Source: a candidate division WOR-3 bacterium
Lineage (GTDB): Bacteria > Hydrothermota > Tepidihabitantia > SM23-42
Direction: 5' to 3'
Assembly: GCA_020349965.1 (NCBI GenBank)
Contig: CP070705.1
Span: forward strand, 689,092-753,091
DNA length: 64,000 bases
Positions 22,589 to 42,083 of this stretch are shown one piece after another. The position numbers were made by a program, and so were the translations under genes. Below the pieces are notes generated by a model that had not been told where the DNA came from, did not search any database, and saw only the letters and a program-made list of their open reading frames with translations. Numbering within the stretch: the stretch's first letter is position 1; the number at the start of each line of letters is the position of its first letter.

Positions 22589-22605
22589 GAATCGGCAAGA
22601 CAACA

Positions 22606-24267: not shown

Positions 24268-24350
24268 ACATCCTCCTTCACAATTTATTATATCAAAATT
24301 CACCAATCATGCAAGTACTACCTGATACGCTCAGTCAGATCCTATCTTGA

Positions 24351-24378
24351 TTGACATGCCACACAATAACGTTATAAT
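24351..24378 (+). promoter_or_regulatory. sigma70-type promoter
   Basis: TTGACA-16-TATAAT upstream of GGAGGAG SD. Confidence 0.7.
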
Positions 24379-24434
24379 ATGAAAGTCAACTTATAAGATT
24401 AAAGCGTGTTTTTTAAGAAGCGGAGGAGTTGCAT

Positions 24435-24791: not shown

Positions 24792-25441
24792 CATTCGAAT
24801 ACGATAGCTACAGGACGTGGCACAACGAAAAGATCCTCACCGACGTCGTTAGTAAGCTGAAGAAGAGAGACTTTGATGCAGAGTATTTCGCCACGATCGA
24901 AGAGACGACCGAAGCGCTGACCAAGGCCATACCTGCCGATGCAGCCGTTGGTATCGGCGGCTCCGTGACGGTCCGCGAACTCGGAATCATCGAAATACTC
25001 GAGAAAAGGAACAATGAGGTAGTGCACCATTGGAAACCCGAAGCCGCCAAAGAAAAGGACCGCGAAACACGAAAGAAAGAAGGGCTGGCTGATTATTACT
25101 TGACGAGTGCCAACGCAATAACGATGAATGGTGATATCATCAATATCGATGGAATAGGTAATCGTGTGGCGCACATGATATTTGGCCCTGACAATGTCAT
25201 TATCGTCGCCGGTCACAATAAGATCGTTCCTGACATAGATTCTGGGATCAGACGCAGCAGGGAAATCGCCGGTGTCATTAATGCAAAAAGAGTTGGTGCC
25301 AAGACACCGTGTGCCGAGACCGGGAAGTGTGTTGACTGCAAAGCGCCGGCCAGAATTTGCAGGGTAACGACGGTCATGCAATATCGACCTTGGCAGACGA
25401 AGATCAAGGTCCTGCTCGTGAACGAACGCCTTGGATACTGA
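24788..25441 (+). CDS. LUD domain (LutC/YkgG-like) protein
   Basis: GGSVTV, YYLTSANAIT, IDGIGNRVA, GHNKIV, PCAETGKCVDC..RIC. Confidence 0.85.
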   Translation: MTFEYDSYRTWHNEKILTDVVSKLKKRDFDAEYFATIEETTEALTKAIPADAAVGIGGSVTVRELGIIEILEKRNNEVVHHWKPEAAKEKDRETRKKEGLADYYLTSANAITMNGDIINIDGIGNRVAHMIFGPDNVIIVAGHNKIVPDIDSGIRRSREIAGVINAKRVGAKTPCAETGKCVDCKAPARICRVTTVMQYRPWQTKIKVLLVNERLGY

Positions 25442-25442
25442 A

Positions 25443-26225
25443 ATGAAGATCGGTTTTTTGCAGTTTGCTCCGCAATTCGGCAACAAGAAGGGCAATCTTG
25501 ATGCCGTTAGCAAACTGACAAACAACATCGATGCGGACGTGATCGTACTACCAGAACTCTTCAATACCGGTTATGCCTTTCTCAATAACGTCGAATTATC
25601 AGAACTCGCTGAGCCCGTGGACGGTGAAACGAATGAATTCATGCAATCCCTGGCAAATGAAATGAATTGCGCCTTTGCTTATGGTTTTGCCGAAAGAACA
25701 GGAAGCGCGTTCTACAATTCCGTATCATTCGTCGCTGCTTCAGGCATCACTGCGACCTACCGTAAATCACACCTCTTCTTCGAAGAGAAATTCCTCTTCA
25801 AACCTGGTGATACAGGACTCAGAACATTCGATCACGGCGGCGTCAAATACGGCATGCTCATCTGTTGGGACTGGATTTACCCCGAAGCGATGAGAACCCT
25901 GGCGCTGCAAGGCGCTCAGATCATAATCCACCCCGCAAATCTCGTAACACCGTATTGCCCGGATGCAATGGTCACACGAGCCATTGAAAATCGTGTCTTC
26001 GTCGTCACCGCAGACCGCACCGGCGACGAGATACGGAATGACAAGAACTTCCACTTCATCGGCACCAGTCAGATCGTCGCTCCTAATGGCGATATCCTGA
26101 CCCGTGCCGGCGAAGAGACCTGCGTGAGGGTCGTCAATATCGAACCAGAGCTGGCGCTCGACAAGAAGATGAATCGGCACAATGACCTCTTCCTCGACCG
26201 ACGCGAAGATCTCTACTTCACGTAA
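25443..26225 (+). CDS. Nitrilase / carbon-nitrogen hydrolase family protein
   Basis: Glu-Lys-Cys triad: VLPELF, YRKSHLF, ICWDW; RAIEN. Confidence 0.92.
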   Translation: MKIGFLQFAPQFGNKKGNLDAVSKLTNNIDADVIVLPELFNTGYAFLNNVELSELAEPVDGETNEFMQSLANEMNCAFAYGFAERTGSAFYNSVSFVAASGITATYRKSHLFFEEKFLFKPGDTGLRTFDHGGVKYGMLICWDWIYPEAMRTLALQGAQIIIHPANLVTPYCPDAMVTRAIENRVFVVTADRTGDEIRNDKNFHFIGTSQIVAPNGDILTRAGEETCVRVVNIEPELALDKKMNRHNDLFLDRREDLYFT

Positions 26226-28561: not shown

Positions 28562-29919
28562 TGGCAACATCGATTCTAGTCATCGACGATGAAGTATTGA
28601 CCCTGAGCAATCTCAGGCGGGCGTTGACAAAGGAAGGATATGAAGTCATGGTTGCCGACTCGGGGGAAACCGGTATTGAGATCTTCAAGAAGAACCACCC
28701 CAATCTGGTATTGGTAGACCTAATGCTTCCCGGTATCGACGGAATCGAAGTCTTGAAGCAGATAAAGGATCTTGAAGCCAATACCGTCGTCATAATGATC
28801 ACCGCTTACGAGATTATCGAGAAGGCGATCGAAGCCATGAAGCTGGGTGCATATGACTACATGATGAAGCCATTCAAAATAAACGAACTGAAGGCTGGGA
28901 TCGCGCGCGCGCTCGAACTGCAATCGCTGCGGGTAAGGGTATCGGACACGATCGAAACGGAACGCGGCAAATACTACTTCGACAGGATAACCGCCCGGAG
29001 CGGGCTAATGATCGATGCCGTAAGAACAGCCCGGCGGGTGGCGCCACTGGATAGAACTACCATCCTCATCACTGGCGAAAGCGGCGTCGGCAAGGGATTA
29101 TTCGCCCGAGCAGTACACTACAACAGCGGGCGTGCCGAAGCGCAATTCACAGAGCTAAATTGTGCTGCCATACCGGACAATTTACTCGAGAGCGAACTCT
29201 TCGGCTACGAACCCGGGGCTTTCACGGATGCACGTAGACGCAAGATAGGATTGCTGGAAAAAACCGACCGTGGCACCCTGTTTCTTGACGAGATCGCAGA
29301 CATGCCGTTTCCGCTCCAGGCGAAGGTGCTGAAGGTACTTGAGGAGCAATCTTTTTCCCGCCTCGGCGGAACGAATCAAATCACGGTAGACGTCCGCATC
29401 ATCGCTGCCACTAATAAGGACCTGCAGAAGCGGATCGAACAAGGAGACTTCCGGGAAGACCTTTTCTACCGGCTCAATGTGGTACCGATCGCAATACCGC
29501 CGTTGAGAGAGAGAAAGGAAGATATAATACCCCTTGCCCTATCATTCATCGAGGAATTCAATGTCGAGCTCCATCGATCATTCAAGGGTATATCCCCTGA
29601 CGCGGCGCATGCTTTGACCGAATATGACTGGCCTGGGAATGTGCGTGAATTACGCAACATCATCGAAAGAACCATGGCACTTCATCAAGGTGAAGAGATA
29701 CTCGCCGAACATCTCTCTGTAGAGATAACGGCAAGCAGGCACATTGAACCGATTATAAGAGAGCAAAAGAAACAGAACGAATTCACGAGCCTGAAGGAAT
29801 TGGAGGATAGATACATAAGAGAAGTATTGGCCTATACGGAGGGGAATAAATCGAAGGCAGCCGGGATACTGGGCATACATCCCACTTCGCTATTCCGAAG
29901 ACTCAAGAAGAGGAAATAG
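28561..29919 (+). CDS. sigma54-dependent (NtrC-family) response regulator
   Basis: REC (IDDE, DLMLP), GESGVGK, ESELFGYEPGAFTDA, FLDEI, WPGNVREL, Fis-type HTH. Confidence 0.95.
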   Translation: MATSILVIDDEVLTLSNLRRALTKEGYEVMVADSGETGIEIFKKNHPNLVLVDLMLPGIDGIEVLKQIKDLEANTVVIMITAYEIIEKAIEAMKLGAYDYMMKPFKINELKAGIARALELQSLRVRVSDTIETERGKYYFDRITARSGLMIDAVRTARRVAPLDRTTILITGESGVGKGLFARAVHYNSGRAEAQFTELNCAAIPDNLLESELFGYEPGAFTDARRRKIGLLEKTDRGTLFLDEIADMPFPLQAKVLKVLEEQSFSRLGGTNQITVDVRIIAATNKDLQKRIEQGDFREDLFYRLNVVPIAIPPLRERKEDIIPLALSFIEEFNVELHRSFKGISPDAAHALTEYDWPGNVRELRNIIERTMALHQGEEILAEHLSVEITASRHIEPIIREQKKQNEFTSLKELEDRYIREVLAYTEGNKSKAAGILGIHPTSLFRRLKKRK

Positions 29920-30039: not shown

Positions 30040-30055
30040 AGGCACGCTAATTGCA
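30040..30055 (+). promoter_or_regulatory. sigma54 (-24/-12) promoter of gdh
   Basis: AGGCACGCTAATTGCA fits TGGCACG-N4-TTGCW with exact GG-N10-GC spacing, directly downstream of an NtrC-family gene. Confidence 0.8.
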
Positions 30056-30081
30056 CTACCTGATGTAAACGGAGGTTGGTC

Positions 30082-31365
30082 ATGGTGAAATTAAACAACA
30101 CCAAAATTCAAGAGAAGAAATATGATCCATTCATCGAGGCTACGATGCAATATGAAAGGGCCGCTAACTCATTGGATCTGGAATCCTGGATATACAACCG
30201 GTTGAAGTTTCCGGAAAAAGAACTGACCGTACATATGACAATAACACGTGACGACGGTAAAGTAGAGACCTATACAGGCTATCGTGTCCAACATTGCACG
30301 GTCAGGGGGCCAGGTAAAGGAGGAATTCGTTACAGCCCGGACGCTTCACTCAGCGAGTGTAAAGCGCTTGCTGCATGGATGACATGGAAGACTGCAGTAC
30401 TTGATCTACCCCTCGGTGGTGCCAAGGGCGCGGTCATATGTAACCCGCCAGCAATGACCGAAGGCGAGCTCGAAAAACTGACCAAAGAATATACTTATTC
30501 AATTAAAGAGATAATCGGGCCGAACCGTGACATACCGGCGCCGGATGTCTGGACAAATGCCCGAACCATGGCTTGGATTTGTGATGCTTACAGCCGGTAT
30601 GTCGGACATTTTGAACCCGCCGTTGTGACTGGCAAACCCATCGAAATAGGTGGTTCACTCGGTCGCTCCGGAGCAACGGGCTTGGGCATGTACTACTCGT
30701 TGCTCGAAGCCTCTAAGCATCTCGAATACCCGCTTGAGGGCAAACGGGTCGCCATCATCGGATATGGCAATGTCGGCTGTTCTATTGCGGAATTGCTATA
30801 TCCCTACGGATGCAAGATCATTGCGATAACCGACATCTACGGCGGCATATACAACAGAAACGGAATAAACATAACTGAATTGAGTGAATATGTCACCCGG
30901 ACAAAGAGCGTAAGTGGATTCAAAAAATATGATTCGATCACCAATGAAGAATTGCTCCGCCTCAACTGCGACATCCTTCTGCCATGCGCTGTCGAAGGTA
31001 TGATCAATGAAAAGAACGCAGACAAGATAAAAGCAAGGATCGTCTGCGAAGGCGCAAATGGACCTACGACCGCCGATGCAGACGAAATCCTGGTCGAAAA
31101 CGGCGTCTTCATGCTGCCCGATATCCTGGCAAATGCAGGTGGTGTCACCGTTTCGTATCTTGAGTGGATCCAGGATCTGCAAAAGCTTTTCTATAGTGAA
31201 GAAGAGGTAAAGACCAGATGCTGGAAAATGATGCAGAAAGCATTCTGGGATGTCATCCGTGTTGCCGACAAATATAAGACGAACATGCGCCACGCAGCAT
31301 ACATCCTCGCCGTTCAGCGGGTCGCAGATTCTATAAGAATGTTCGGTAAAATCGGCAGGAACTAA
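30082..31365 (+). CDS. gdhA: Glu/Leu/Phe/Val family dehydrogenase (glutamate dehydrogenase)
   Basis: GYRVQH, GPGKGGIR, MTWKTA, GGAKG, DIPAPDV, VTGKP, GYGNVG, EGANGP, PDILANAGGVTVSY. Confidence 0.92.
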   Translation: MVKLNNTKIQEKKYDPFIEATMQYERAANSLDLESWIYNRLKFPEKELTVHMTITRDDGKVETYTGYRVQHCTVRGPGKGGIRYSPDASLSECKALAAWMTWKTAVLDLPLGGAKGAVICNPPAMTEGELEKLTKEYTYSIKEIIGPNRDIPAPDVWTNARTMAWICDAYSRYVGHFEPAVVTGKPIEIGGSLGRSGATGLGMYYSLLEASKHLEYPLEGKRVAIIGYGNVGCSIAELLYPYGCKIIAITDIYGGIYNRNGINITELSEYVTRTKSVSGFKKYDSITNEELLRLNCDILLPCAVEGMINEKNADKIKARIVCEGANGPTTADADEILVENGVFMLPDILANAGGVTVSYLEWIQDLQKLFYSEEEVKTRCWKMMQKAFWDVIRVADKYKTNMRHAAYILAVQRVADSIRMFGKIGRN

Positions 31366-31385: not shown

Positions 31386-31415
31386 AGCCGGGTTCTACCT
31401 GAACCCGGCTTTTTT
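31386..31415 (+). terminator. Intrinsic terminator after gdh
   Basis: AGCCGGGTTC-TACCT-GAACCCGGCT followed by a T tract. Confidence 0.85.
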
Positions 31416-31444
31416 CTTGCAGTAAGTACAGAAAGGCACTATGA

Positions 31445-31508
31445 ATGCAAAATGCAATAGCATAACGTGGAAGAAACCTGTTGACTATGGCCCAAATGTA
31501 AGTATAAT
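31445..31508 (+). promoter_or_regulatory. Operator copy plus sigma70-type promoter of the redox operon
   Basis: ATGCAAAATGCAATAG (31445-31460), 15/16 identical to 29986-30001; TTGACT-16-TATAAT at 31481-31508. Confidence 0.65.
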
Positions 31509-31530
31509 AATGCCCCGAGAAAGGAGTGAT

Positions 31531-32031
31531 ATGAAAATCAACGCGAAGGATCTTTCGAGAATAGTTAGCAAATATCACGACGAGAAGTCGTCCCTCATCG
31601 CCGTCCTCCAGGATGTGCAGGAAGAATATCACTGGCTTCCTCCGGAAGCGCTCCGATTTGTCTCAGAAAAACTGTGTATTCCTTTGATCGATGTTTACAG
31701 CGTGGCCACCTTCTACCGTGCATTCAGCCTCACCCCGCGCGGCGAACATGTGGTGACTGTGTGTCTGGGTACAGCATGCCATGTACGCGGAGCGCCGCTC
31801 GTTCTCGACCGCATAAGAAATCGACTGAGAGTTGAACCGGGCTGCACGACAGGTGACGGCAAGTTCACGCTGGAGAGCGTCAACTGCCTGGGCGCTTGCG
31901 CCTTGGCGCCGATCGTTGTCGTCGACGGTAAGTACCATGGTCAGACCACAGTGAAAAAAGCAGCTCAGATTATTGAAGAATACCACACAAAAAGACCGAA
32001 GAAAAGGGTAACTCGCAGAAGAAAAAAGTAG
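31531..32031 (+). CDS. NuoE/HydC-like [2Fe-2S] subunit
   Basis: LIAVLQDVQ, VATFY, CLGTACHVRG, NCLGACALAP; AAGGAG SD. Confidence 0.92.
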   Translation: MKINAKDLSRIVSKYHDEKSSLIAVLQDVQEEYHWLPPEALRFVSEKLCIPLIDVYSVATFYRAFSLTPRGEHVVTVCLGTACHVRGAPLVLDRIRNRLRVEPGCTTGDGKFTLESVNCLGACALAPIVVVDGKYHGQTTVKKAAQIIEEYHTKRPKKRVTRRRKK

Positions 32032-32034
32032 GAC

Positions 32035-32424
32035 ATGACCCTATCCCAAATAAGAATCCTGCTCGACGCAGAATTCATCTGTGAACACGGAATGCAAAAC
32101 TCCGACATAAAATATGCTAAAGCATCGGACCTCATGAGCGATGTCCTTGCATTCTCTGAACCGTTTTCCGACCGCAACACAATCCTCATAACCGGGCTCA
32201 CCAACAAACAGGTCATCAGAACATGCGAAATCGCCGGGGTAGGAGCTATTATTTTCGTGCGCGGCAAGAATCCATCGACCGAAACCATTGAACTTGCCCA
32301 TCAATGCAAAATAACACTACTCACGACGAAGTTGAAGATGTTTGAAACTTGTGGAATTCTCTATACAAACGGCATAACTGGTGTAGCACCCGGCACACAT
32401 GGGAATCCATCAGATGCAACCTGA
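32035..32424 (+). CDS. DRTGG domain protein
   Basis: SDLMSDVL, LITGL, IIFVRGK. Confidence 0.85.
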   Translation: MTLSQIRILLDAEFICEHGMQNSDIKYAKASDLMSDVLAFSEPFSDRNTILITGLTNKQVIRTCEIAGVGAIIFVRGKNPSTETIELAHQCKITLLTTKLKMFETCGILYTNGITGVAPGTHGNPSDAT

Positions 32425-32863
32425 AGCACTCTTGCAGAAAGAATTCGCGATTCAGGGCGGCGATTTTGTGAATGCCGGAGAATCATCGTGCATGATAAGA
32501 AACACGCTACGTGAGATCGGGGTCGACAGTGATATCGTTCGGCGCATGGCAATTGCCGCATACGAAGCAGAGATGAACGTTGTCATGTATGCTCTGCACG
32601 GCACAATGCAAATAAGCGTCTACCGCGATGAAATCCTTCTGACAATCGCCGATAAAGGGCCGGGCATACAGGATATCGAAATGGCAATGCAACCCGGATT
32701 CTCCACGGCGACCGAGGAAATGCGCGAAATGGGATTCGGCGCCGGCATGGGTTTGCCCAACATAAAGAAGAACGCAGATGTTTTCAACATAACATCACGT
32801 GTCGGTAACGGCACGAAGCTCGAAATCCGGATATTCCTCGATGGAAAAAAGACCAGAAAGTAG
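32414..32863 (+). CDS. Anti-sigma-factor-type Ser/Thr kinase (HATPase_c)
   Basis: AAYEAEMNVV, DKGPGI, GFST, GFGAGMGLPN. Confidence 0.88.
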   Translation: MQPEALLQKEFAIQGGDFVNAGESSCMIRNTLREIGVDSDIVRRMAIAAYEAEMNVVMYALHGTMQISVYRDEILLTIADKGPGIQDIEMAMQPGFSTATEEMREMGFGAGMGLPNIKKNADVFNITSRVGNGTKLEIRIFLDGKKTRK

Positions 32864-34148
32864 TTTCATTCATTCAATAAAGGTCGACGATGCAACATGC
32901 ATCGGATGTGTTGCGTGTATGAAGGTCTGTCCTACTAAGGCGATACGGCTACGCGGCGGGAAAGCACATATCAACTACGAACGATGTATCGATTGCGGCG
33001 GTTGTTTGCGAATCTGCCCGCACCATGCCGTCGTACCGGTCACCACATCACCATCCGATCTCAATCGATTCAAATATAGAATCGCATTGCCCTCACCAGT
33101 CGTCTATTCGCAGTTCGGCAGCACGGTAATGCCCAATGAAATTCTCACGATTCTGACCGAGATCGGATTCGACCATGTATACGACGAAGCCCTCGTCTGC
33201 GAGATGGCGAGCATTGCGATCGAGGAATATCTCGACGAGAACAAATCACCCAGGCCTATAATATCGTCCACTTGCCCGGTTGTCGTAAGGCTAATCCAGA
33301 GGCTCTTTCCCACTCTCTGCAAGAACATCTTGCCGTTGGAACCGCCTCGCGAAATAGCTGCCAAGAACTTACGTTCCGAAGTCACGAGAGAAAAGAAAAT
33401 AGCGCCTGACGAGATCGGCATCATCGATATCACTCCATGCTCTGCAAGGATGGTCTCGATATGCCACCCCGAGACGATGGAGAAGTCGAACCTCGACGGG
33501 GCGATCCCGATCAAAGATATCTACAACAAAGTCATGCTGAGACTCAAACGCAGCATGCCGATGGTCATGATGCAGAGCCAGACACGGATCAGCGGCATCG
33601 GTATTGGTTGGGCGATCGAGGGCGGCGAGATAAGGGGGCTTAAATACACGAATTCCGTTTCCGTTTCTGGAGTGCTTAATACAATACGCCTCCTTCAGGA
33701 CGTAGAGTCAGGTCGCCTGAAGAACATCGAATACCTCGAGTGCTTGATATGTCCTGATGGATGCATAGGCGGCCCGCTCACCGTAGAAAATCGATTCATT
33801 GCGAAGAGCAATGTCTTGCGCCTCATACGGCACTTCGGCGGCAAGAAAAGAGTCAATGTAGATATGGTCAAGAAACTCTACAGGGAGAATTTCTTCTCCT
33901 TCAAATGGGCTGTTGAGCCAAAGTCGTTTCCTCCTCTTGACAAGGACAGGAACGTGGCGATTCTGAAGCTCAAGCAGAAAGAGGAATTGCTGAAAAGACT
34001 CCCGGGCACCGATTGCGGCGTTTGCGGTGCTCCGGACTGCAAAACTCTTGCCGAAGACATTGTACGGGGTGAATCAAAGATCGAGAATTGCATATACATC
34101 AAAAAGAAACCATCAAGTGAAATGAAAAATACTGGAGATAAAAAATGA
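32841..34148 (+). CDS. [FeFe]-hydrogenase-like sensory protein (group D/HfsB-like): 2x[4Fe-4S], degenerate H-domain, C-terminal FeS domain
   Basis: CIGCVACMKVCP, CIDCGGCLRICP; SSTCP, ITPCSAR, CLICPDGCIGG; LPGTDCGVCGAPDC. Confidence 0.82.
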   Translation: MEKRPESSFIHSIKVDDATCIGCVACMKVCPTKAIRLRGGKAHINYERCIDCGGCLRICPHHAVVPVTTSPSDLNRFKYRIALPSPVVYSQFGSTVMPNEILTILTEIGFDHVYDEALVCEMASIAIEEYLDENKSPRPIISSTCPVVVRLIQRLFPTLCKNILPLEPPREIAAKNLRSEVTREKKIAPDEIGIIDITPCSARMVSICHPETMEKSNLDGAIPIKDIYNKVMLRLKRSMPMVMMQSQTRISGIGIGWAIEGGEIRGLKYTNSVSVSGVLNTIRLLQDVESGRLKNIEYLECLICPDGCIGGPLTVENRFIAKSNVLRLIRHFGGKKRVNVDMVKKLYRENFFSFKWAVEPKSFPPLDKDRNVAILKLKQKEELLKRLPGTDCGVCGAPDCKTLAEDIVRGESKIENCIYIKKKPSSEMKNTGDKK

Positions 34149-34489
34149 AAATTCGAGAAATCGTGAAAGCATACGATCTCCATTTACTGACTGGGGAAAA
34201 AATGCAGGACCGCGAAATAACCGGAGGCTATGTCAGTGACCTGCTCAGCGATGTCATGGCTCACTGCAAGAAGGGAGCCATCTGGATCACGCTCCAGGCA
34301 CATCCGAATATCGTCGCGGTTGCCGTACTCAAAGAAATCTCGGGTATCATAATCGTTAATGGCCGCAAGCCGGAAAAAGATACGATCACAAAAGCCGAGA
34401 CCGAAAGCGTCGCCATCATGAGCACTGAACGCTCGGCCTTCGATGTGGCTGGACAACTGTACGGCATGGGCTTACGTGGAACGCGTTGA
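34145..34489 (+). CDS. DRTGG domain protein
   Basis: GYVSDLLSDVM, WITLQAHPNIVAVA. Confidence 0.85.
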   Translation: MKIREIVKAYDLHLLTGEKMQDREITGGYVSDLLSDVMAHCKKGAIWITLQAHPNIVAVAVLKEISGIIIVNGRKPEKDTITKAETESVAIMSTERSAFDVAGQLYGMGLRGTR

Positions 34490-35235
34490 TGTTGAAATGT
34501 CATCAAGTGGACCTTCACATACACTCTTGTCTGTCTCCATGCGCCGATTTGATGATGTCACCCAAGAGAATAGTCCGGGCCGCTATCGCTAAACAACTCG
34601 ACATGATAGCATTGTGCGACCATAATTCCGCAGAGAACATCGAAGCCACCATGGCCGTGGCACGTAACACGAGATTAACAGTTCTGCCTGGCATGGAAGT
34701 AACCAGTTCAGAAGAAGTCCATGTATGTGGCATCTTCAGAGATGCGGACGCGACTTTGACCCTACAGGAATTGGTGTACAGGGAACTTGCCCCGGGCGAG
34801 AACGACGCAGCACTTTTTGGCGACCAGATCATCGTCAATGAATTTGACGAGGTCGAAGGCTACAACCGACGGTTATTGATTGGAGCCACCAATCTATCAG
34901 TGGAAGAAGTTGTGGCCGAAATCCACCGTCTTGGTGGTCTGGCCATAGCATGCCATGTCGACCGCCAGGCGTATAGCATCATCGAACAACTGGGATTCAT
35001 CCCGAAAGATCTCCAACTGGACGCACTGGAAATATCTGCTGCAACCACATTTGACCAGGCCGTGAAGCGGATACCGCAATTAACAGAATACTCTGTCGTA
35101 TCATCTTCCGACGCCCACAGCCTCGATGAAATTGGAAAGATTGCGACTTCTCTCAACATCGAAAAGCTAGACTTCGACGAGCTACGCCAAGCATTGCGCC
35201 GCGAAAATGGGCGGAGCATATCCCTCAGGGGTTAG
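34489..35235 (+). CDS. PHP domain phosphoesterase
   Basis: DLHIHSCLSPC, LCDHN, PGMEV, EEVH, ACHVDR, SSDAH. Confidence 0.9.
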   Translation: MLKCHQVDLHIHSCLSPCADLMMSPKRIVRAAIAKQLDMIALCDHNSAENIEATMAVARNTRLTVLPGMEVTSSEEVHVCGIFRDADATLTLQELVYRELAPGENDAALFGDQIIVNEFDEVEGYNRRLLIGATNLSVEEVVAEIHRLGGLAIACHVDRQAYSIIEQLGFIPKDLQLDALEISAATTFDQAVKRIPQLTEYSVVSSSDAHSLDEIGKIATSLNIEKLDFDELRQALRRENGRSISLRG

Positions 35236-35237
35236 GT

Positions 35238-35795
35238 GTGGATGATTTATCATTGCATGTCCTCGATATCATTGAAAATGCGGTTACAGCAGGCGCCACG
35301 AATGTTGAGGTCCGGATCACTGACGACGAAAGGCAAAATCTCTTTATGATCGAGATCGCAGACAACGGCAGGGGCATGGACAAAGAAACGTTGAAAAAGG
35401 CAATCGATCCCTTTTACACGACAAAAACCGTCCGCAAGGTAGGACTGGGTCTTTCTATGCTGGCTCAAGCCGCAAAAGAAGCCGGGGGCAAATTCGGGGT
35501 ACAATCACAACCGGGCAGAGGTACCAAGATTCATGCACATTTCCTACACGACCATATTGACCGGAAGCCGTTAGGCGATATGGCCGAGACGATCGCAGCT
35601 TTCATCGCAGGCAACGGCGAGAAAGTAGATCTTACTTATCATCACCGTAAGGGTGATCAGGAGTTTTTCTTTTGCACCACAGAAATAAAAAAGGTGCTCG
35701 AAGAAATCACAATTTGCCACCCCGAGGTCATTTCCTTTATCAAAAGAGAAATCCGGGATGGTTTGAAATCAATTTCCAAAAGGAGCAAAATATGA
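35238..35795 (+). CDS. Stand-alone HATPase_c (kinase-like) protein
   Basis: LDIIENA, DNGRGM, DPFYTT, GLGL, DRKPLGD. Confidence 0.85.
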   Translation: MDDLSLHVLDIIENAVTAGATNVEVRITDDERQNLFMIEIADNGRGMDKETLKKAIDPFYTTKTVRKVGLGLSMLAQAAKEAGGKFGVQSQPGRGTKIHAHFLHDHIDRKPLGDMAETIAAFIAGNGEKVDLTYHHRKGDQEFFFCTTEIKKVLEEITICHPEVISFIKREIRDGLKSISKRSKI

Positions 35796-36175
35796 AGAAA
35801 TTAAAGATCGGTGACCTTGCCAAGATACGCGACAAGGTGAGAAAAACTGCGGTACTGCGGCAAGGCAAAGCAAGGGCAAAGATAACAGTCCATATGGGAA
35901 CCTGCGGCATTGCGGCCGGCGCTCGTGACATACTTTCCGGCCTGCTCGAGGATATCAAGTCAAAGAAACTAAACGACGTCATCGTAACCACCTCAGGCTG
36001 TGCTGGGCTCTGTAGTAGGGAGCCTATGGCAACAGTCGAGATCACCGGAAAACCTCCGGTCAAATACGTTGATCTGACAACTGAAAAAATGAAAAAAATC
36101 CTCAGCCAGCACGTAATCAAGGGTACTATAGTCAACGAATACGCTCTTGCCATCGGCAGCGAAAGGACACATTGA
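35792..36175 (+). CDS. Thioredoxin-like [2Fe-2S] ferredoxin (HndB/HydD-like)
   Basis: HMGTCGIAAGA, SGCAGLCSREP; AAGGAG SD. Confidence 0.85.
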   Translation: MKKLKIGDLAKIRDKVRKTAVLRQGKARAKITVHMGTCGIAAGARDILSGLLEDIKSKKLNDVIVTTSGCAGLCSREPMATVEITGKPPVKYVDLTTEKMKKILSQHVIKGTIVNEYALAIGSERTH

Positions 36176-36223
36176 CGCCGAACGCTAGACGCCATATGCA
36201 TAGAGCGTCACGCGTTGTGCGTA
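36174..36223. repeat. Inverted 7-mer repeat element, empty form
   Basis: 3x RACGCNN, palindrome TATGCATA, 3x NNGCGTH. Confidence 0.75.
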
Positions 36224-36239
36224 GATCAAGGAGGTTAGT

Positions 36240-39200
36240 TTGAAAGACTTTCGAATGCACTTGCTCGTGTGTGCGGGAACAGGTTGTGTTGCGGCAGGAT
36301 CTTTTGATATCAAGAAGGCACTCGAAAAAGAGATCATCAAGAAAAAACTGCAGAACGAAGTGACGGTCATTGCGACCGGCTGTAATGGATTCTGCGAAAG
36401 AGGGCCCATCGTGGTCGTTCAGCCCGACGGCGTGTTCTATCAACGGTTGAAGACGGATGACATACCTCACCTCGTCGAAGAACACCTGCTTAAAGGGCGG
36501 CCCGTCAAGGACCTGATGTATGTTCCTCCGGCCGAAGCAAAACCAGTGCCGAGGATGATGGACATCAGATTTTTCAAACACCAGCGACTAATCGTGCTTA
36601 AGAACCGCGGACGCATCGATCCAGAAAATATCGACGAATATATCGCATTTGACGGATACCGCGCACTTGAAAAGGCACTGACCGACATGAAACCGGATGA
36701 CATCATCCGTGAAGTCAAGGCATCGGGACTCAGAGGTCGCGGTGGCGCCGGCTTTCCGACCGGCTTGAAGTGGGAATTATGCGGGAAGGTACAGAACGGC
36801 CCGAAGTATGTAGTCTGCAATGCTGATGAGGGCGACCCCGGTGCATTTATGGATCGCAGCATCCTCGAAGCGGACCCCCATGCCGTCCTTGAAGGAATGA
36901 TTCTCGGCGCGAGGGCGATCGGTGCTGGAAAAGGTTTCATCTATGTTCGCACCGAATATCCGCTCGCCCTGCAGAGAATAAAGATCGCAATCGAACAAGC
37001 CGAGAAATACGGCTTGCTTGGCAAGAACATACTCGACTCCGGATTCGACTTCTCGATTGAGGTCAAACGTGGTGCCGGTGCATTCGTCTCCGGCGAAGAA
37101 ACGTCATTATTGGCGGCGATCGAAGGCAAGATTGGCATTCCCAAGCAACGTCCCCCCTACCCGGTGCAGAAAGGACTGTGGAAGAGACCGACCAATATCA
37201 ACAACGTCGAGACGTGGGCAAACGTGCCCCATATCATACTTCGCGGCGCACACTGGTACTCTGAGATAGGAACCGAAGGCAGCAAAGGAACGAAAATTTT
37301 CTCCCTCGTCGGGAAAATAAACAACACCGGACTCGTTGAAGTACCCATGGGCATTACCATGAAAGATATCATATACGAAATCGGCGGCGGCATCCCCGGC
37401 AATAAGCAGATAAAAGCTGTTCAGACCGGGGGTCCATCAGGCGGCTGTATACCCAAGCAAATGCTCGATCTGCCAATCGACTATGAAAGCCTTAAAGGAG
37501 CAGGATCCATGATGGGGAGCGGCGGAATGATCGTCATGGATGAAGATACCTGTATGGTCGATGTTGCAAAATATTTCATGAATTTTCTACGAGACGAATC
37601 ATGCGGCAAATGCCTGTCGTGCCGTGAGGGTACGCAAAGAATATGGGAAATCCTTGACCGTATAACAAAAGGGAAAGGCAAACCGGACGACATCTCCCTG
37701 CTCAGAGAGTTGGCCACCGCAACAAAGGACGCATCGATGTGCGGCCTCGGACAGACTGCTGCAAATCCGGTAATGAGCACGCTCAACTATTTTGCCGATG
37801 AGTACGAAGCACATATCAAGTACAAGAAGTGCTCTGCCGCCGTGTGCAAGCAGATAATCTCTTCACCATGCCAGCATACATGTCCGATCGCCACCGAAGC
37901 CCCCCAGTACATCGCATACCTCGCACATGGCGAGTTCGAAAAAGCATACGAAATCATCTTGAAGGATAACCCGCTACTCAATGTCTGCGCGCGCGTCTGC
38001 CACCACCCGTGTGAGATCAAGTGCCGCGCCGGTCAGGGCGGAAGACCGATTGCCATCCGTGCACTCAAACGCGCTGCCATCGAGTACAGCAATGGCAGGA
38101 AACGTAAGAAACCACGGATTGCGACCGGTCCGAAAGTCGCAATCATAGGTTCAGGACCGTCAGGACTCATGGCTGGGTTCGCGCTTGCCCAAGAAGGTTG
38201 TGCGCCGACGATCTTCGAAGCCCTACCCGTCGCCGGCGGCATGCTCGCAGTCGGCATACCGGCATATCGTCTACCGAGAAAGGCACTCGAAGAGGACATC
38301 AAACGCGTGATCAATGCCGGCGTCGAGATAAAAACGAACCAGAAACTGGGTAGAGACTTCACTCTTGAACGACTTAGAGACCAGGGTTACAAGGCAGTGT
38401 ACATAAGCATCGGCGCGCATAGGAGCATCAAGCTCGGCATCCCCAATGAGGAATCCACTGGTGTGATACCAGCAATGCACTTTCTGACACAGGTCAGCCT
38501 TGGCAAGAAGGTCGTCGTTGGTCAGAGGGTCGGAGTGATCGGCGGGGGCAACTCTGCGGTCGACGCCGCCCGGGTGGCGAACCGCCTGCGCAATGTCCAA
38601 AAAGTCACCATCATATACCGAAGAACAAGAAATGAAATGCCTGCGTATGCCGAGGAGATCGAATGCGCACTCGAAGAAGGTATAGACATCCTGTTTCTGA
38701 CCGCACCGACCGAAGTTATCACCAGAGACGGTTGCATAACCGGGGTCAGGTGCATGAAGATGCAGCTCGGGTCCGTCGAGAAAGATGGCAGGCGGCGGCC
38801 GATTCCGATCAAAGGTTCTGAATTCGTCATCGAACTCGATACACTCATCTCGGCAATCAGCGAACAGCCGGACATCTCTTTTCTCCCAGAAAAACACGAC
38901 TTTAATATTACCGGATGGAATACTTTTGAGGTCGACCGAGAATCACTTGCGACGAACGTGCCGGGGGTATTCGCCGGTGGTGACGCGATACGCGGGCCCA
39001 GTTCGGTCATAGAAGCAATGGCCGACGGCAAACGAGTGGCTGCTGCAATCAGCAGATATCTAAAAAATGAGCCCTTCGAGTACGAATATGAAGTCACCAG
39101 GCCCTCTGTTTATGTCGACCCCGTGAAATTGACGGTCGAAGAGACTCTCGAAAGTACCCGTCAGGAAACGAAGAAGCTAAAATCGGCAGTCCGCCGCAAG

Positions 39201-39311
39201 AGTAATGATGAGGTCGATCTCGGACTGAGTAAGAGTGCCGCAATCAAAGAAGCAAAACGCTGTTTAAGATGCGATCTGGAAGTCAAAGAGGAAGATGAAA
39301 AGGAGCAATAA
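36240..39311 (+). CDS. NuoF/HydB-like NAD(H)-FMN subunit fused to a GltD/NfnB-like FAD-NAD(P)H domain
   Basis: VCAGTGC/GCNGFC [2Fe-2S]; GRGGAGFPTG, NADEGDPGAFMDR, GGPSG, CGKCLSC..CGLG; then PCQHTCP..CARVCHHPCEIKC, GSGPSG, GGGNSA, YRRT, GGDAIRGP, CLRC. Confidence 0.93.
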   Translation: MKDFRMHLLVCAGTGCVAAGSFDIKKALEKEIIKKKLQNEVTVIATGCNGFCERGPIVVVQPDGVFYQRLKTDDIPHLVEEHLLKGRPVKDLMYVPPAEAKPVPRMMDIRFFKHQRLIVLKNRGRIDPENIDEYIAFDGYRALEKALTDMKPDDIIREVKASGLRGRGGAGFPTGLKWELCGKVQNGPKYVVCNADEGDPGAFMDRSILEADPHAVLEGMILGARAIGAGKGFIYVRTEYPLALQRIKIAIEQAEKYGLLGKNILDSGFDFSIEVKRGAGAFVSGEETSLLAAIEGKIGIPKQRPPYPVQKGLWKRPTNINNVETWANVPHIILRGAHWYSEIGTEGSKGTKIFSLVGKINNTGLVEVPMGITMKDIIYEIGGGIPGNKQIKAVQTGGPSGGCIPKQMLDLPIDYESLKGAGSMMGSGGMIVMDEDTCMVDVAKYFMNFLRDESCGKCLSCREGTQRIWEILDRITKGKGKPDDISLLRELATATKDASMCGLGQTAANPVMSTLNYFADEYEAHIKYKKCSAAVCKQIISSPCQHTCPIATEAPQYIAYLAHGEFEKAYEIILKDNPLLNVCARVCHHPCEIKCRAGQGGRPIAIRALKRAAIEYSNGRKRKKPRIATGPKVAIIGSGPSGLMAGFALAQEGCAPTIFEALPVAGGMLAVGIPAYRLPRKALEEDIKRVINAGVEIKTNQKLGRDFTLERLRDQGYKAVYISIGAHRSIKLGIPNEESTGVIPAMHFLTQVSLGKKVVVGQRVGVIGGGNSAVDAARVANRLRNVQKVTIIYRRTRNEMPAYAEEIECALEEGIDILFLTAPTEVITRDGCITGVRCMKMQLGSVEKDGRRRPIPIKGSEFVIELDTLISAISEQPDISFLPEKHDFNITGWNTFEVDRESLATNVPGVFAGGDAIRGPSSVIEAMADGKRVAAAISRYLKNEPFEYEYEVTRPSVYVDPVKLTVEETLESTRQETKKLKSAVRRKSNDEVDLGLSKSAAIKEAKRCLRCDLEVKEEDEKEQ

Positions 39312-40051
39312 TGGTAAGTCTTATTTTAAACGGACTTGAAGTTCAGGCCGAAGAAGGTTCAACGGTCCTCGAAACGTGCAGGTTCTACGGAATTGAGATA
39401 CCTACACTCTGCTACAACGAAGGGCTCCAGCCGTACGGGGGGTGCCGCCTCTGTTTGGTTGAGATCGGAACCGGAGATAATAGCAAACTGGTCAGCTCAT
39501 GTACGTATCCGGTCGAAGAAGGGCTGAACGTTCGTACCAATACCAAACGAGTCGTCAGTGCACGCAAGATGATGATCGAACTACTCGTTTCGGTATGCCC
39601 GCAGTCAAAGACCATCCAGGATCTGGCATCGAAATACCACGTTACGCAAGTGCGTTTTCCGGCTCGTAATGACGACTGTATCCTGTGTGGTCTTTGTGTA
39701 AGGATGTGCAAGGAACAGATGCAATCCGGTGCAATCGGCTTCACCGAACGCGGATTCAAGAAGAAGATCGTCACGCCATTCAACGCCAGGTCAGAGCAGT
39801 GCCGTTTGTGCGGCGGCTGTATCTACGTCTGCCCTGCTTGCCAGATGAGATGCCAAGGTCCGGATGCTCCAACCGACCTTTGCAGCGGGTGCCTATCACT
39901 GGAGCCTTCCTGCATTCAGACGCATGACGACTACCAGTGCTGGATGGGCACAACTGGCGACTGCGGGACCTGTGAAGGACGGCCGGATCAAAGGACGCGA
40001 GACGCAAAACGCTCGACGCCCAACGCAAAAAATAATGCATCGAGTAAATGA
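39311..40051 (+). CDS. NuoG/HydA N-terminal-like FeS protein without catalytic domain
   Basis: PTLC..GGCRLC..SC [2Fe-2S]; CILCGLCVRMC and CRLCGGCIYVCP; 8 further C-terminal Cys. Confidence 0.85.
   Translation: MVSLILNGLEVQAEEGSTVLETCRFYGIEIPTLCYNEGLQPYGGCRLCLVEIGTGDNSKLVSSCTYPVEEGLNVRTNTKRVVSARKMMIELLVSVCPQSKTIQDLASKYHVTQVRFPARNDDCILCGLCVRMCKEQMQSGAIGFTERGFKKKIVTPFNARSEQCRLCGGCIYVCPACQMRCQGPDAPTDLCSGCLSLEPSCIQTHDDYQCWMGTTGDCGTCEGRPDQRTRDAKRSTPNAKNNASSK
39994..40028 (+). repeat. Tandem 7-mer array (left arm)
   Basis: GACGCGA GACGCAA AACGCTC GACGCCC AACGCAA. Confidence 0.8.
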
Positions 40052-40072
40052 ATGCATCAAAAGGGCCAAATC

Positions 40073-40483
40073 ATGTATTCTTTTGAGAAATTAGAAATAT
40101 GGCAGCTATCATTGGATCTTGCAGAGAAGATATGTCAGATGTCTACGGAATTACCTGATGACGGAAAATTCGGATTAATAAGCAAACTTAAGAGAGCATC
40201 GGTGTCTATAACTCTCAATATTGCAGAAGGAAGAGGGTCTGACAGCGATGCAGAGTTCAGGAGATTTCTGGGAATTGCCCTCAAATCATTGATTGAGGTT
40301 GTCGCCTGTCTGAAAATCTGTGAGAGGCTGCAATCCCTTGACCAAACGATTGTATCAGATACATGTGCATTTTGTGATAAGATTGAAGCAAAGATTCGAA
40401 AATTTAGAAACGCGCTCAGTGCCGGACGAAACACACACAAAGCAAAACGCGTTAGGCGTAAGGCGTCGAGCGTAAAGCGTTAA
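40073..40483 (+). CDS. Four-helix-bundle protein (23S rRNA IVS / TIGR02436-like family)
   Basis: FEKLEIWQ, KFGLISKLKRASVSITLNIAEG, FRRFLGIALKSLIEV. Confidence 0.9.
   Translation: MYSFEKLEIWQLSLDLAEKICQMSTELPDDGKFGLISKLKRASVSITLNIAEGRGSDSDAEFRRFLGIALKSLIEVVACLKICERLQSLDQTIVSDTCAFCDKIEAKIRKFRNALSAGRNTHKAKRVRRKASSVKR
40447..40481 (+). repeat. Tandem 7-mer array (right arm, inverted relative to left)
   Basis: ACGCGTT AGGCGTA AGGCGTC GAGCGTA AAGCGTT. Confidence 0.8.
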
Positions 40484-40499
40484 GTCGAAAGGAGAAAAA

Positions 40500-42083
40500 A
40501 TGCCCTCATTATCAAGAATGAATGCCTCTGCGGCAACATTAACAAAGAATAGAACAGAAGATTCGATCGTACCATTGAGTGGAATGTGCGTTACCTGTGT
40601 TGATGGGTGTATCGGCATGTGTGAGATCGGCAAGTCGGCGTACCGCGGCCATGAGGTGATCTACCCACAGCCCTTCGGCATCCTGACTGCGGCATCTGAA
40701 AAGAACTATCCGGTGGATTATTCTCACTTCAATATCATGGGCACGGCAGTAGGCGCCATTGGAGTCGATGCCGATCCAGACAAAGCGATATTCCCGAACG
40801 TCATGATCGAGCAGAAGATCGGCGCGAACAGCGATATCAAGCTTAAGTTCCCAATGGTCGTCCCGGGACTAGGGTCGACGAATGTCGCCAAGAATAACTG
40901 GGAAGGATTGGCGATCGGTACCGCATTATCAGGAGCCATGTTGACGATCGGTGAGAACGTCGTTGCAATGGACATGAAGAGTGAGATCAAGGGCGGCAAG
41001 ATACTCAGAGCACCGGATCTTGAACATCGCGTGAAATTGTATAAAGACTGGCAGCAGGACGGGTACGGCATGATCATCGTTCAAGCCAATGTCGAGGATA
41101 CCCGTCTGGGTGTACAGGAATTCGCCATTCAGAAATTGGGTGTTGAGACGGTCGAGTTGAAATGGGGACAGGGTGCAAAAGACATCGGCGGCGAAGTGAA
41201 GGTCAAAGACCTCAAGAAAGCACAGGAACTTCGGAAGCGTGGATATGTCGTGCTTCCCGATCCATTAGATCCTGATGTTATCGAAGCCTTTGAGCACAAA
41301 ACATTTACCGAGTTCGAAAGGCATTCCAGGATAGGAATGGTTGACGAAGAATCCTTCATGAAGCGGGTTGAAGAACTGCGCAACGCAGGCGCCAAGCATG
41401 TATTCCTGAAGACCGGCGCTTATCGACCTGCAGATCTGGCACGAGCGGTCAAGTACTCATCAAGAGCAAAGATCGATCTACTCACAATTGACGGTGCAGG
41501 CGGCGGAACGGGCATGAGTCCGTGGCATATGATGAACGAATGGGGTATGCCTCCGGTTGAGATCCATTCCCTGGCATTCTGCTACACCGACAAGCTAGCC
41601 AAGAAAGGCGAATATGTTCCCTCGCTGGCATTTGCCGGCGGCATCGCCTTTGAAGACCAGATCTTCAAGGCGCTTGCCTTAGGAGCTCCTTACACGAAGA
41701 TCGTCGGAATGGCCAGGGGCCCTCTGTGTGCAGCAATGGTCGGAAAGACCATCGGCAAGAAGATCGATGAAGGTGAAATACCGGTGTTCGTCGAGCGTTT
41801 CGGAAACAAGAAAGAGGAAATCTTCGTTACTGCGTCAAAGCTTAAGAAGGAATTGGGTAAGGATTTCGACAGAGTGCCACCAGGTGCACTGGGCGTCTAC
41901 ACCTACGTGGAGAGAATGGCACAAGGGTTGAAACAGCTGATGACCGGTAACCGGAAGTTCGCGTTGAAATACATCACGCGAGATGACATCGCCTCGCTCA
42001 CCAAAGATGCAGCGAATATATCCGGGATTCCTTATGTTATGGACGTGGATAAAGACGAGGTCGAGAAAATACTGAATGGATAA
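40500..42083 (+). CDS. Stand-alone FMN-binding glutamate-synthase-family protein
   Basis: ELKWGQGAK, TIDGAGGGTGMSP, AGGIAFEDQIFKALALGA match the GltS FMN barrel; N-terminal CVTCVDGCIGMC; AAGGAG SD. Confidence 0.85.
   Translation: MPSLSRMNASAATLTKNRTEDSIVPLSGMCVTCVDGCIGMCEIGKSAYRGHEVIYPQPFGILTAASEKNYPVDYSHFNIMGTAVGAIGVDADPDKAIFPNVMIEQKIGANSDIKLKFPMVVPGLGSTNVAKNNWEGLAIGTALSGAMLTIGENVVAMDMKSEIKGGKILRAPDLEHRVKLYKDWQQDGYGMIIVQANVEDTRLGVQEFAIQKLGVETVELKWGQGAKDIGGEVKVKDLKKAQELRKRGYVVLPDPLDPDVIEAFEHKTFTEFERHSRIGMVDEESFMKRVEELRNAGAKHVFLKTGAYRPADLARAVKYSSRAKIDLLTIDGAGGGTGMSPWHMMNEWGMPPVEIHSLAFCYTDKLAKKGEYVPSLAFAGGIAFEDQIFKALALGAPYTKIVGMARGPLCAAMVGKTIGKKIDEGEIPVFVERFGNKKEEIFVTASKLKKELGKDFDRVPPGALGVYTYVERMAQGLKQLMTGNRKFALKYITRDDIASLTKDAANISGIPYVMDVDKDEVEKILNG

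Follow-up and report, generated by a model that had tools for sequence, protein, structure and literature searches.

A Bfu-type operon of a candidate division WOR-3 bacterium with a glutamate-synthase-family FMN protein in the position of a hydrogenase subunit

The closest described relatives of the system reported here belong to the Bfu family of iron-sulfur (FeS) flavoenzymes and to the glutamate synthases (GltS). In architecture the nearest are the Type 2 Bfu enzymes, for example Wor-Bfu (WorABCSL) of Acetomicrobium mobile (PMC9304861; PMC12318220), which combine a NuoE/NuoF-like core with a BfuA subunit reduced to an FeS wire and place the third substrate on an extra subunit encoded beside bfuA. 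In domain combination the nearest are the Nfn-Bfu/StnABC enzymes of Sporomusa ovata, Thermococcus sibiricus and Caldicellulosiruptor saccharolyticus, which add to the NuoE/NuoF core a GltD/NfnL-like flavin adenine dinucleotide (FAD)-NADP(H) module with two [4Fe-4S] clusters. Further points of comparison are NADPH-dependent GltBD (and ferredoxin-dependent GltS), with a GltD-type module of FAD and two [4Fe-4S] clusters feeding a flavin mononucleotide (FMN) TIM barrel, and those HydABC hydrogenase operons that carry a regulatory cassette of DRTGG, HATPase, HydS-like and PHP proteins. Here we describe an operon that shares features with each of these, in a 64,000-nucleotide stretch of DNA (the window) from a candidate division WOR-3 bacterium (GCA_020349965.1, contig CP070705.1, positions 689,092 to 753,091 of the forward strand; genome G000 in our labelling, in which G numbers denote genomes and L numbers loci). 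In addition to such a cassette, it codes for a NuoE-like protein, a NuoF-like protein fused to a GltD-like module, a short NuoG-like FeS protein and a 527-aa FMN protein of the GltS FMN-domain family (Table 1).

Every one of these comparisons also brings out differences. The extra subunit of Wor-Bfu is a tungstopterin enzyme, whereas that of the window is a GltS-family FMN barrel with a four-cysteine site; moreover, the BfuB ferredoxin-like domain is here replaced by GltD, and the short BfuA has a Cys-rich tail of its own. In Nfn-Bfu/StnABC the GltD-like module lies in BfuA and BfuB keeps B3/B4, while in the window the module is found on the NuoF-like protein, at the BfuB C-terminus, in the place of B3/B4, and an additional FMN subunit is encoded in the operon. 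Relative to GltBD, the K-x-x-QGAK and DGxGGTGxSP motifs are kept, but an N-terminal four-Cys site stands instead of the [3Fe-4S] cluster, the partners are NuoE/NuoF/NuoG-like and the sequence similarity is distant. Relative to the HydABC operons, the order from nuoE through the cassette and a ferredoxin to nuoF is the same, but hydA is replaced by the short NuoG gene and the FMN gene, HydB carries GltD, and the genome lacks HydA and HydF. The NuoF::GltD fusion as such has a precedent, in that the group F hybrid hydrogenase of Thermoplasmatota has been noted to include a HydB with a 'glutamate synthase (GltA) domain' (PMC11216029); in such hydrogenase loci the fusion is paired with an H-cluster HydA, and in the window with the FMN protein. 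None of the Bfu types of the family paper has a GltS-like subunit (PMC9304861), which agrees with an earlier first-pass annotation of the window that had called the complex undescribed, and the literature searched, including that paper and its supplement, describes no Nuo/Bfu module joined to a GltS-type FMN protein.

We posit, at about even probability, that the products of this operon form a soluble four-subunit FeS flavoprotein that reduces 2-oxoglutarate and ammonia, with the hydrogenase subunit replaced by the short NuoG and the FMN subunit. In such an enzyme NADH would be oxidized at the NuoF FMN and, in the window genome, NADPH would also be oxidized at the fused GltD-type FAD, while the relatives with unfused NuoF would use ferredoxin at the HydB ferredoxin-like domain. 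The FeS clusters of the short NuoG would relay the electrons to the four-Cys site and thence to the FMN of the 527-aa subunit, where 2-iminoglutarate, formed from 2-oxoglutarate and free ammonia, would be reduced to glutamate without any glutaminase. The enzyme might thus dispose of NAD(P)H and ferredoxin electrons independently of hydrogen or serve as a redox-driven route of ammonia assimilation, a role that is plausible because it sits in a former HydABC operon retaining its phospho-signalling cassette, and it would work beside a separately transcribed, sigma54-controlled glutamate dehydrogenase (GDH). Pyrococcus provides a precedent for reductive amination in the role of electron sink: its fermentation forms alanine via GDH and alanine aminotransferase. 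For the electron path itself, the model is the GltS chain, which runs from NADPH through the FAD of the beta subunit and two [4Fe-4S] clusters to the [3Fe-4S] cluster of the alpha subunit, FMN and 2-iminoglutarate (PMC8097209). More generally, GltD-like modules pass NAD(P)H electrons to a second protein via low-potential clusters, and the relay from GltD through FeS clusters to an FMN barrel is established in glutamate synthase and dihydropyrimidine dehydrogenase (PMC8097209). The locus has all elements of the GltS chain except the glutaminase and the [3Fe-4S] site, together with the NuoEF(G) input, and it is this inventory that suggests the path proposed. The more specific view, that protons as the terminal acceptor have been exchanged for 2-oxoglutarate and ammonia, such that a Bfu core with a HydABC-style cassette feeds NADH electrons, along with those of NADPH or ferredoxin, into an amidotransferase-free glutamate synthase, we hold to be rather doubtful.

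The genes that the first-pass annotation had placed in one co-directional run after gdh are all present with intact frames on the + strand, and mreBCD lies downstream of the FMN gene. The domain matches are strong and fall in long open frames, so that chance cannot account for the pattern. The order NuoE, fusion, short NuoG and FMN gene, with the genes adjacent or overlapping, recurs in seven loci, of Eubacteriales (L007), Aminicenantes (L008, L038), Acidobacteriota (L011), L013, Gemmatimonadaceae (L029) and Asgard archaea (L031), where the short NuoG is 50-64% identical over 86-100% of its length and the FMN protein 66-75% identical. Within the phylum of the window, 71 of 272 species genomes have an ortholog of the FMN protein; by comparison of coordinates, about 36 genomes have a NuoF gene no more than ~3 kb from it on the same contig, and most of the remaining ones have the NuoF and FMN genes on different short contigs. 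As far as noted, adjacency is broken in G148 alone, a 67% complete single-contig genome of the same genus, in which the FMN gene (1190346-1191923) and a truncated fusion gene (1650736-1653123) are 460 kb apart, by either rearrangement or assembly artefact. In a sample of 301 Asgard genomes, 82 have a member of the FMN family, four of them a 66-69% identical ortholog and the rest paralogs 44-52% identical; one genome (L115, G534) has the full module and a paralog on one contig. Overall, orthologs in distant lineages remain 66-97% identical to the operon genes, and no cofactor Cys has been lost. Co-conservation of the FMN gene with those of NuoE, NuoF and the short NuoG thus holds across phyla and in both prokaryotic domains.

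The fusion protein combines, in order, the 2Fe-2S_thioredx, Complex1_51K, NADH_4Fe-4S, Fer4_20 and Pyr_redox_2 domains. Its N-terminal [2Fe-2S] domain matches PF01257 over residues 5-81, in keeping with the Bfu definition (PMC9304861), with C48 and C52 invariant and C11 and C16 present but outside the invariant columns. The NADH/FMN site and the adjacent B1 [4Fe-4S] cluster site of BfuB are clearly recognizable (Complex1_51K 1.5e-45; NADH_4Fe-4S 4e-33; Cys455/458/461/501 invariant), and the separate NuoE-like subunit is a BfuC with its [2Fe-2S] domain. The GltD-type 2x[4Fe-4S] domain has eight Cys, seven invariant and one, C583, nearly so, and is followed by FAD and NAD(P)H Rossmann motifs and an invariant C-terminal RCLRC. 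A YRR motif after the second Rossmann fold presumably points to NADPH as the nucleotide. The BfuB ferredoxin-like domain (B3/B4) is absent from the fusion, in which NADH_4Fe-4S (441-525) is directly followed by Fer4_20 (531-618), while this usual HydB C-terminal domain is present in a paralog encoded elsewhere in the genome.

In the scan with an alignment of fusion proteins, which covered one genome per species and returned 80 loci onto which the proteins of the window were mapped, about 40 carry the full NuoF::GltD fusion. At least nine fusion loci (L010, L014, L022-L024, L030, L034, L037, L039) are followed by a NuoG-like N-terminus that runs into an H-cluster domain, that is, a real HydA. 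Hence, the NuoF::GltD fusion is common and mostly hydrogenase-linked. Conversely, many genomes of the same phylum have an unfused NuoF in an open frame of 600-760 aa, and ten such loci (L089-L098) comprise NuoE, NuoF, short NuoG (52-80% identity) and the FMN gene with no GltD. The size of these frames and a short 4Fe-4S match after nuoF in six of the ten loci suggest that the unfused orthologs retain the ferredoxin-like domain. As the FMN gene stays with the Nuo core with or without GltD, the FMN protein and not GltD is the constant partner: the conserved unit consists of NuoE, NuoF, the short NuoG and the FMN protein, and GltD takes the place of the HydB ferredoxin-like domain in some lineages and not in others. 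The notion that the fusion defines the system was accordingly rejected, and with it the emphasis of the first-pass annotation on a rewiring to GltD as the core of the locus, given that orthologous operons of the same phylum keep the short NuoG and the FMN protein next to a plain HydB-type NuoF of 600-630 aa.

The short NuoG, in an alignment of 18 orthologs, displays a [2Fe-2S] site, two CxxCxxCxxxC motifs and a conserved C-terminal extension with 7-8 further Cys, and shows no motif for a His-ligated cluster; its 246 residues include no catalytic or flavin domain. The Cys-rich tail would be suited to bridging to another FeS protein. It could nevertheless be asked whether NuoE, NuoF::GltD and the short NuoG constitute a Stn/NfnABC-like transhydrogenase, with the FMN protein being an independent and perhaps ferredoxin-dependent enzyme that only shares the operon. 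The union of a GltD-like NADPH module with a NuoEF core is indeed the make-up of Nfn-Bfu/Stn, and FMN paralogs are found with no Nuo genes nearby (L099, L100, L107-L114), implying that the family can use other electron donors. However, the GltD-free orthologous operons keep the short NuoG and the FMN gene, these two genes overlap in L029, L031 and L097, and the short NuoG lacks a catalytic domain, which would leave the unfused version without a third substrate. Moreover, a second Bfu-like set is encoded 13 kb past the end of the window (G000:C1:761200-767900; L087 5213-11863, - strand), followed by NfnA and NfnB. As the genome already has NfnAB, a transhydrogenase role is not needed from the operon, and we consider this alternative improbable. 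The second set itself comprises a 154-aa NuoE, a 725-aa NuoG in which a molybdopterin-like domain is weakly matched, and a 610-aa HydB-type NuoF that shares 73% identity with the N-terminal half of the fusion; the set may represent a formate- or unknown-substrate Bfu enzyme encoded alongside a classical Nfn.

Turning to the FMN protein, all 20 members tested share a single significant Pfam family, PF01645, the GltS FMN-barrel family, with a score of 58.6 bits for the protein of the window against a cut-off of 20.4 in a partial match to profile positions 185-308. Mean column identity is 78% in a set of 20 sequences that covers several bacterial phyla and one Asgard archaeal genome, orthologs remain 66-75% identical across phyla and in Asgard archaea, and an N-terminal C30-x2-C33-x3-C37-x3-C41 motif (CxxCxxxCxxxC) is invariant. 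A Smith-Waterman alignment with the FMN domain of E. coli GltB spans the full domain and keeps the K-x-x-QGAK, R-[LF]-GV and DGxGGTGxSP motifs, the paired segments being QANVEDTRLGV/KQVASGRFGV, LKWGQGAK-DIGGE/IKVAQGAKPGEGGQ and DGAGGGTGMSP/AGYDGGTGASP. At E<=1e-30 the family comprises 184 clusters (50% identity) among 1.84 billion cluster representatives and is a small, distinct clade. The genome of the window has no canonical GOGAT amidotransferase, central or GXGXG domains: GATase_2 (PF00310) gave no match in G000 and four other module-bearing genomes, while 13 of 14 control genomes match, and GXGXG (PF01493) gave none in G000, G149, G117, G164 and G260, while all 14 control genomes match. 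Across the phylum GXGXG was found in 20 of 272 genomes, whatever their module status.

The genomic associations of the family converge on the glutamate node. Of 19 module loci, 10 have a gdh gene at a distance of no more than 10 kb (the window, L011, L029, L031 with three copies, L089, L091, L092, L094, L096 and L115), and so do seven of 12 loci of Asgard paralogs, which also include a separate GltD-like gene in two cases and glnA in one; for the family overall, including paralogs without a Nuo module, the count is 17 of 31 loci. Adjacency by chance is estimated at ~1%, given genomes that carry one to three copies of gdh. In one Aminicenantes locus (L008) glnA is directly upstream of the module. 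As a separate observation, Asgard paralogs of 44-48% identity in L110-L117 (G288, G299, G468, G343, G540, G534, G306, G555) stand beside one to three copies of gdh, sometimes with a separate GltD-like gene, and with no Nuo genes. In the genus g96, a paralog clade with 46-49% identity and the Cys motif kept is found in clusters of the order FMN protein, PII, AsnA-like, Amt, PII, GlnA and a 1521-aa GltB; two such clusters, L099 (G234:C12, 507-8738) and L100 (G240:C3), are headed by a 548-aa paralog that is 46% identical. This gdh/gln linkage is the best evidence that the family acts on glutamate, 2-oxoglutarate and ammonia.

Several observations weigh against a glutamate-forming complex of the kind proposed. 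The FMN protein is only distantly related to GltB: the PF01645 match is limited to its C-terminal half, hhalign against the E. coli GltB FMN domain gave 54% probability, again for that half only, a search of PDB sequences with the protein found nothing, and one with an ortholog profile, which was too narrow, returned nothing relevant, so that neither retrieved GltS. In the alignment with GltB no Cys counterpart is seen for the [3Fe-4S] motif Cx5Cx4C after the barrel. The residue aligned with Gln978 of GltS appears to be Glu. An AlphaFold2 (AF2) model of the protein is a TIM barrel with pLDDT 66 and residues 1-96 unmodelled, its Foldseek neighbors in the PDB are generic FMN barrels, e.g. lactate/glycolate oxidases, and structure comparison with this model did not settle the substrate. 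Three g96 genomes (G232, G243, G244) hold a canonical GltB together with the Bfu-linked ortholog, so that the module as a simple GOGAT replacement was rejected. Between the short NuoG gene and the FMN gene lie an inserted gene and a promoter-like site (40083-40112). For the couple of 2-oxoglutarate plus ammonium and glutamate, the standard potential is about -130 mV. Characterized third substrates of Bfu enzymes lie far below this, at roughly -400 mV (PMC9304861). By its potential the couple belongs among the hypothetical 'high-potential' acceptors of Bfu enzymes, menaquinone and H2O2, and not among H2, formate and NADPH. Finally, the low-potential path of NfnABC leads from FMN via C1 of the NuoE-like subunit to B3/B4 of the BfuB ferredoxin-like domain and on to ferredoxin (PMC12018979); a part for ferredoxin in the complex of the window, where GltD replaces this docking domain, would thus be doubtful.

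Some of these points also fit the same chassis acting on another FMN substrate, such as a 2-oxo or imino acid, a hydroxy acid or an N-alkyl glutamate, with the Nuo module giving or taking the electrons. On its side stand the confident match of only the cofactor-binding half to PF01645, the alpha-hydroxyacid oxidases among the Foldseek neighbors and the compactness of the family as a clade of its own; further, GltS-type FMN domains are also used by N-methylglutamate synthase. We regard such a substrate as possible but tentatively so, because the association with gdh recurs for ortholog and paralog in bacteria and archaea, a paralog lies within an amt-glnK-glnA-gltB cluster, and the QGAK motif, which in GltS contacts both substrate and FMN, is retained. 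Taken together, we infer assembly into one complex, its substrate, the direction of catalysis and bifurcation or confurcation from gene content, cofactor motifs, conservation and synteny, all of which are directly observed. The locus encodes a real, conserved and uncharacterized enzyme system within the Bfu and FeS-flavoenzyme families, probably with a function at glutamate/2-oxoglutarate.

The relationship to hydrogenases is documented by the cassette. The order nuoE, DRTGG, HATPase, HydS-like, DRTGG, PHP, HATPase, [2Fe-2S] ferredoxin and nuoF is identical in true HydABC operons of Firmicutes and others (L062, L063, L075, L084), with variants of the cassette order in L052, L056, L076 (Desulfotruncus), L080 (Proteiniphilum) and L083-L086. 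FMN-type operons retain it solely in the taxonomic order to which the window belongs (L092, L093), and the module operons of other phyla lack it. The label 'hydrogenase-type operon without a hydrogenase', given by the first-pass annotation, is apt for this lineage. As an aside, one metagenome-assembled genome (L060, 10001-13853) has the full cassette with NuoE and NuoF followed by a NuoG-like protein with a GltD-like part, of Stn/NfnABC type, showing that the cassette serves several types of Bfu enzyme.

No hydrogenase partner was found in the genome, which is closed and 2.30 Mb in size. Of the catalytic HydA with a complete H-cluster site and the HydEFG maturases that would define an [FeFe] hydrogenase HydABC, HydA and HydF are missing: the genome-wide profile search returned the 449-aa cassette protein as the only Fe_hyd_lg_C match, and the best HydF match scored 78 bits against a cut-off of 326, which two control genomes with [FeFe] hydrogenases pass. 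The sole true [NiFe] hydrogenase belongs to an HdrCBA/MvhD-MvhG-MvhA cluster that is located at 1.04 Mb, at a distance of ~310 kb, and has partner subunits of its own; the other [NiFe]-type match is NuoD. A catalytic hydrogenase elsewhere as the true partner was thus rejected, there being no other Fe_hyd_lg_C protein and the Mvh-Hdr-type cluster being self-sufficient. The absence of an H-cluster HydA noted from the window therefore extends to the whole genome as far as catalytic proteins go, with the correction that a degenerate Fe_hyd_lg_C protein does sit in the cassette, under which the first-pass annotation had subsumed it. This HydS-like protein has SSTCP (P1) and PCSAR (P2) instead of TSCCP and PCxxK, and retains the four Cys of the [4Fe-4S] part of the H-cluster site. 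Since the HydS-like proteins of true HydABC operons likewise lack the P1 proton-transfer Cys (SS[TA]CP), the apparent erosion of P1 is a family trait, while the Lys-to-Arg change of P2 is specific to the protein of the window. It probably senses the redox state via its FeS clusters and not H2.

These features could also be taken to mean that the operon is a decaying hydrogenase remnant with no function of its own, a view that would appeal to the retention of a hydrogenase-type cassette without a hydrogenase, the P2 change and the selfish-looking gene inserted in the operon. The intactness of every frame and the degree of ortholog identity at large distances, with the cofactor Cys all conserved, make this very improbable.

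The gdh gene upstream is adjacent, as the first-pass annotation had it, but forms a transcription unit of its own: it has a sigma54-like promoter and is followed by a strong terminator, and is therefore a neighbor outside the operon. The sigma54-like site is only suggestive, its position alone speaking for it, as a motif search of the whole window allowing two mismatches gave 31 matches versus 27 expected, which is not significant. A weaker -24/-12-like site, AGGCACTATGAATGCA, with two mismatches, is seen between the gdh terminator and nuoE (31434-31449), and such matches are expected by chance; through it the redox operon might also respond to the sigma54 regulator. Three weak terminator-like sites occur on the + strand from nuoE to the end of the FMN gene (31592-31579, 36414-36431, 39438-39452), and a scan of the + strand over 31531-42083 found none in intergenic gaps.

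A histidine kinase and a sigma54 regulator are likewise found upstream of the module in L008, L011, L013, L094 and L096, and this setting bears on a further alternative, in which the enzyme would work in oxidative amino-acid catabolism, with glutamate deaminated at the FMN site and its electrons passed together with reduced ferredoxin to NAD(P)H. The dCache sensor kinase, sigma54 regulator and gdh upstream, and the gingipain-like C25 peptidase and carbon-nitrogen hydrolase in the window, would suit such a role, as would the precedent of a sigma54-dependent catabolic gdh in B. subtilis rocG/RocR. We nonetheless think it quite unlikely: GDH already performs the same reaction with NAD(P)+, no gain from spending ferredoxin is obvious, and GltS-type FMN sites work reductively (PMC8097209).

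If the proposal of a glutamate-forming enzyme is correct, the Bfu family would gain a flavin-based, nitrogen-linked third reaction and the glutamate synthases a glutaminase-free minimal form. On the more specific and doubtful view of an exchange of protons for 2-oxoglutarate and ammonia, the enzyme would represent a new Bfu class and provide sediment anaerobes with an H2-insensitive fermentative sink or with ATP-free, high-affinity ammonia assimilation; with the neighboring GDH it would link the pools of ferredoxin, NADH and NADPH through a glutamate/2-oxoglutarate shuttle. An ortholog of the FMN protein occurs in a quarter of the genomes of the phylum and also in Asgard archaea and several further bacterial phyla, and the system is not a single-genome curiosity. 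Members of the groups that carry it are widely predicted to ferment peptides in sediments, and current models of NADH/NADPH/ferredoxin balance and ammonia handling in such cells omit the enzyme. Orthologous operons that alternate between a GltD-fused BfuB and one bearing a ferredoxin domain amount to a natural experiment on the possible connections of the low-potential branch of a Bfu core. What the window adds in particular is the retained HydABC-type cassette, the alternation of fused and unfused BfuB within a phylum, the linkage of archaeal paralogs to gdh, and an inserted gene of the 23S rRNA IVP family.

Table 1. Features of the redox operon and its upstream neighborhood (positions in the window)
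Feature	Position	Strand	Basis or remark
dCache_1/PAS/HisKA/HATPase sensor histidine kinase; probable regulator of the locus	26351..28561	+	Pfam
NtrC-type sigma54-dependent response regulator	28561..29919	+	Pfam Response_reg, Sigma54_activat, HTH_8
sigma54-type -24/-12 element AGGCACGCTAATTGCA, 20 bp before gdh	30040..30055	+	One mismatch, GG and GC intact; by position only
Glutamate dehydrogenase (gdh), separate transcription unit	30076..31365	+	Pfam ELFV_dehydrog 1.4e-76; NCBIfam GdhA_Arch 5.5e-149, below cut-off
Intrinsic terminator-like hairpin after gdh	31386..31410	+	10-bp stem, 7 GC pairs, T run
NuoE/HoxE/BfuC-like [2Fe-2S] subunit	31441..32031	+	PF01257 1e-50 over full domain
sigma70-like promoter before nuoE	31481..31508	+	TTGACT-16-TATAAT, 11/12 positions
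Regulatory cassette, six genes	32035..35795	+	Pfam
Cassette: DRTGG protein, first	32035-32424	+	
Cassette: anti-sigma-type HATPase	32399-32863	+	
Cassette: HydS-like Fe_hyd_lg_C + FeS protein, 449 aa	32799-34148	+	
Cassette: DRTGG protein, second	34145-34489	+	
Cassette: PHP phosphoesterase	34486-35235	+	
Cassette: HATPase, second	35238-35795	+	
Small thioredoxin-like [2Fe-2S] ferredoxin	35672..36175	+	PF01257 partial match; NCBIfam fdxn_Clost 8.3e-9
NuoF/HydB (BfuB)-like subunit fused to GltD/NfnB-like module, 1023 aa	36240..39311	+	Pfam, NCBIfam
Short NuoG/HoxU (BfuA)-like FeS protein, 246 aa	39311..40051	+	Pfam, NCBIfam
25-nt imperfect inverted repeats flanking the IVP-family gene	40002-40026 / 40456-40480		ACGC-containing units
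Four-helix-bundle (23S rRNA IVP family) gene, 143-aa product	40052..40483	+	PF05635 1.1e-28
FMN TIM-barrel protein, GltS FMN-domain family, 527 aa; putative catalytic subunit	40500..42083	+	PF01645, E=7.7e-16

Two gene starts probably differ from those tabulated. The NuoE-like protein, whose top NCBIfam matches are HoxE and NuoE, both below cut-off, likely begins near 31531 because its domain starts at residue 39, and the true start of the small ferredoxin is probably downstream of 35795.

The IVP-family gene between the short NuoG and FMN genes was left off the gene list of the first-pass annotation, which otherwise describes the genes as we find them. The gap from the fusion to the FMN gene measures ~740-770 bp in G136, G118 and G120 versus ~1100-1470 bp in the window's own genus, G134 and G122; judging by these sizes, the gene is a lineage-specific insertion of that genus and a few relatives, outside the conserved module. 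With its flanking repeats (39994-40483) it looks like a small mobile cassette. Both the short NuoG and the inserted protein end in C-terminal tails encoded by these repeats, and a similar palindromic element without cargo is found between the ferredoxin stop and nuoF (36174-36223).

Upstream of the sensor kinase (20661-26225) are genes for a GTP-dependent phosphoenolpyruvate carboxykinase, a secreted C25 (gingipain-like) peptidase, a LUD-domain protein and the carbon-nitrogen hydrolase, which fit a proteolytic, amino-acid-using lifestyle; that the last might be an omega-amidase is speculation.

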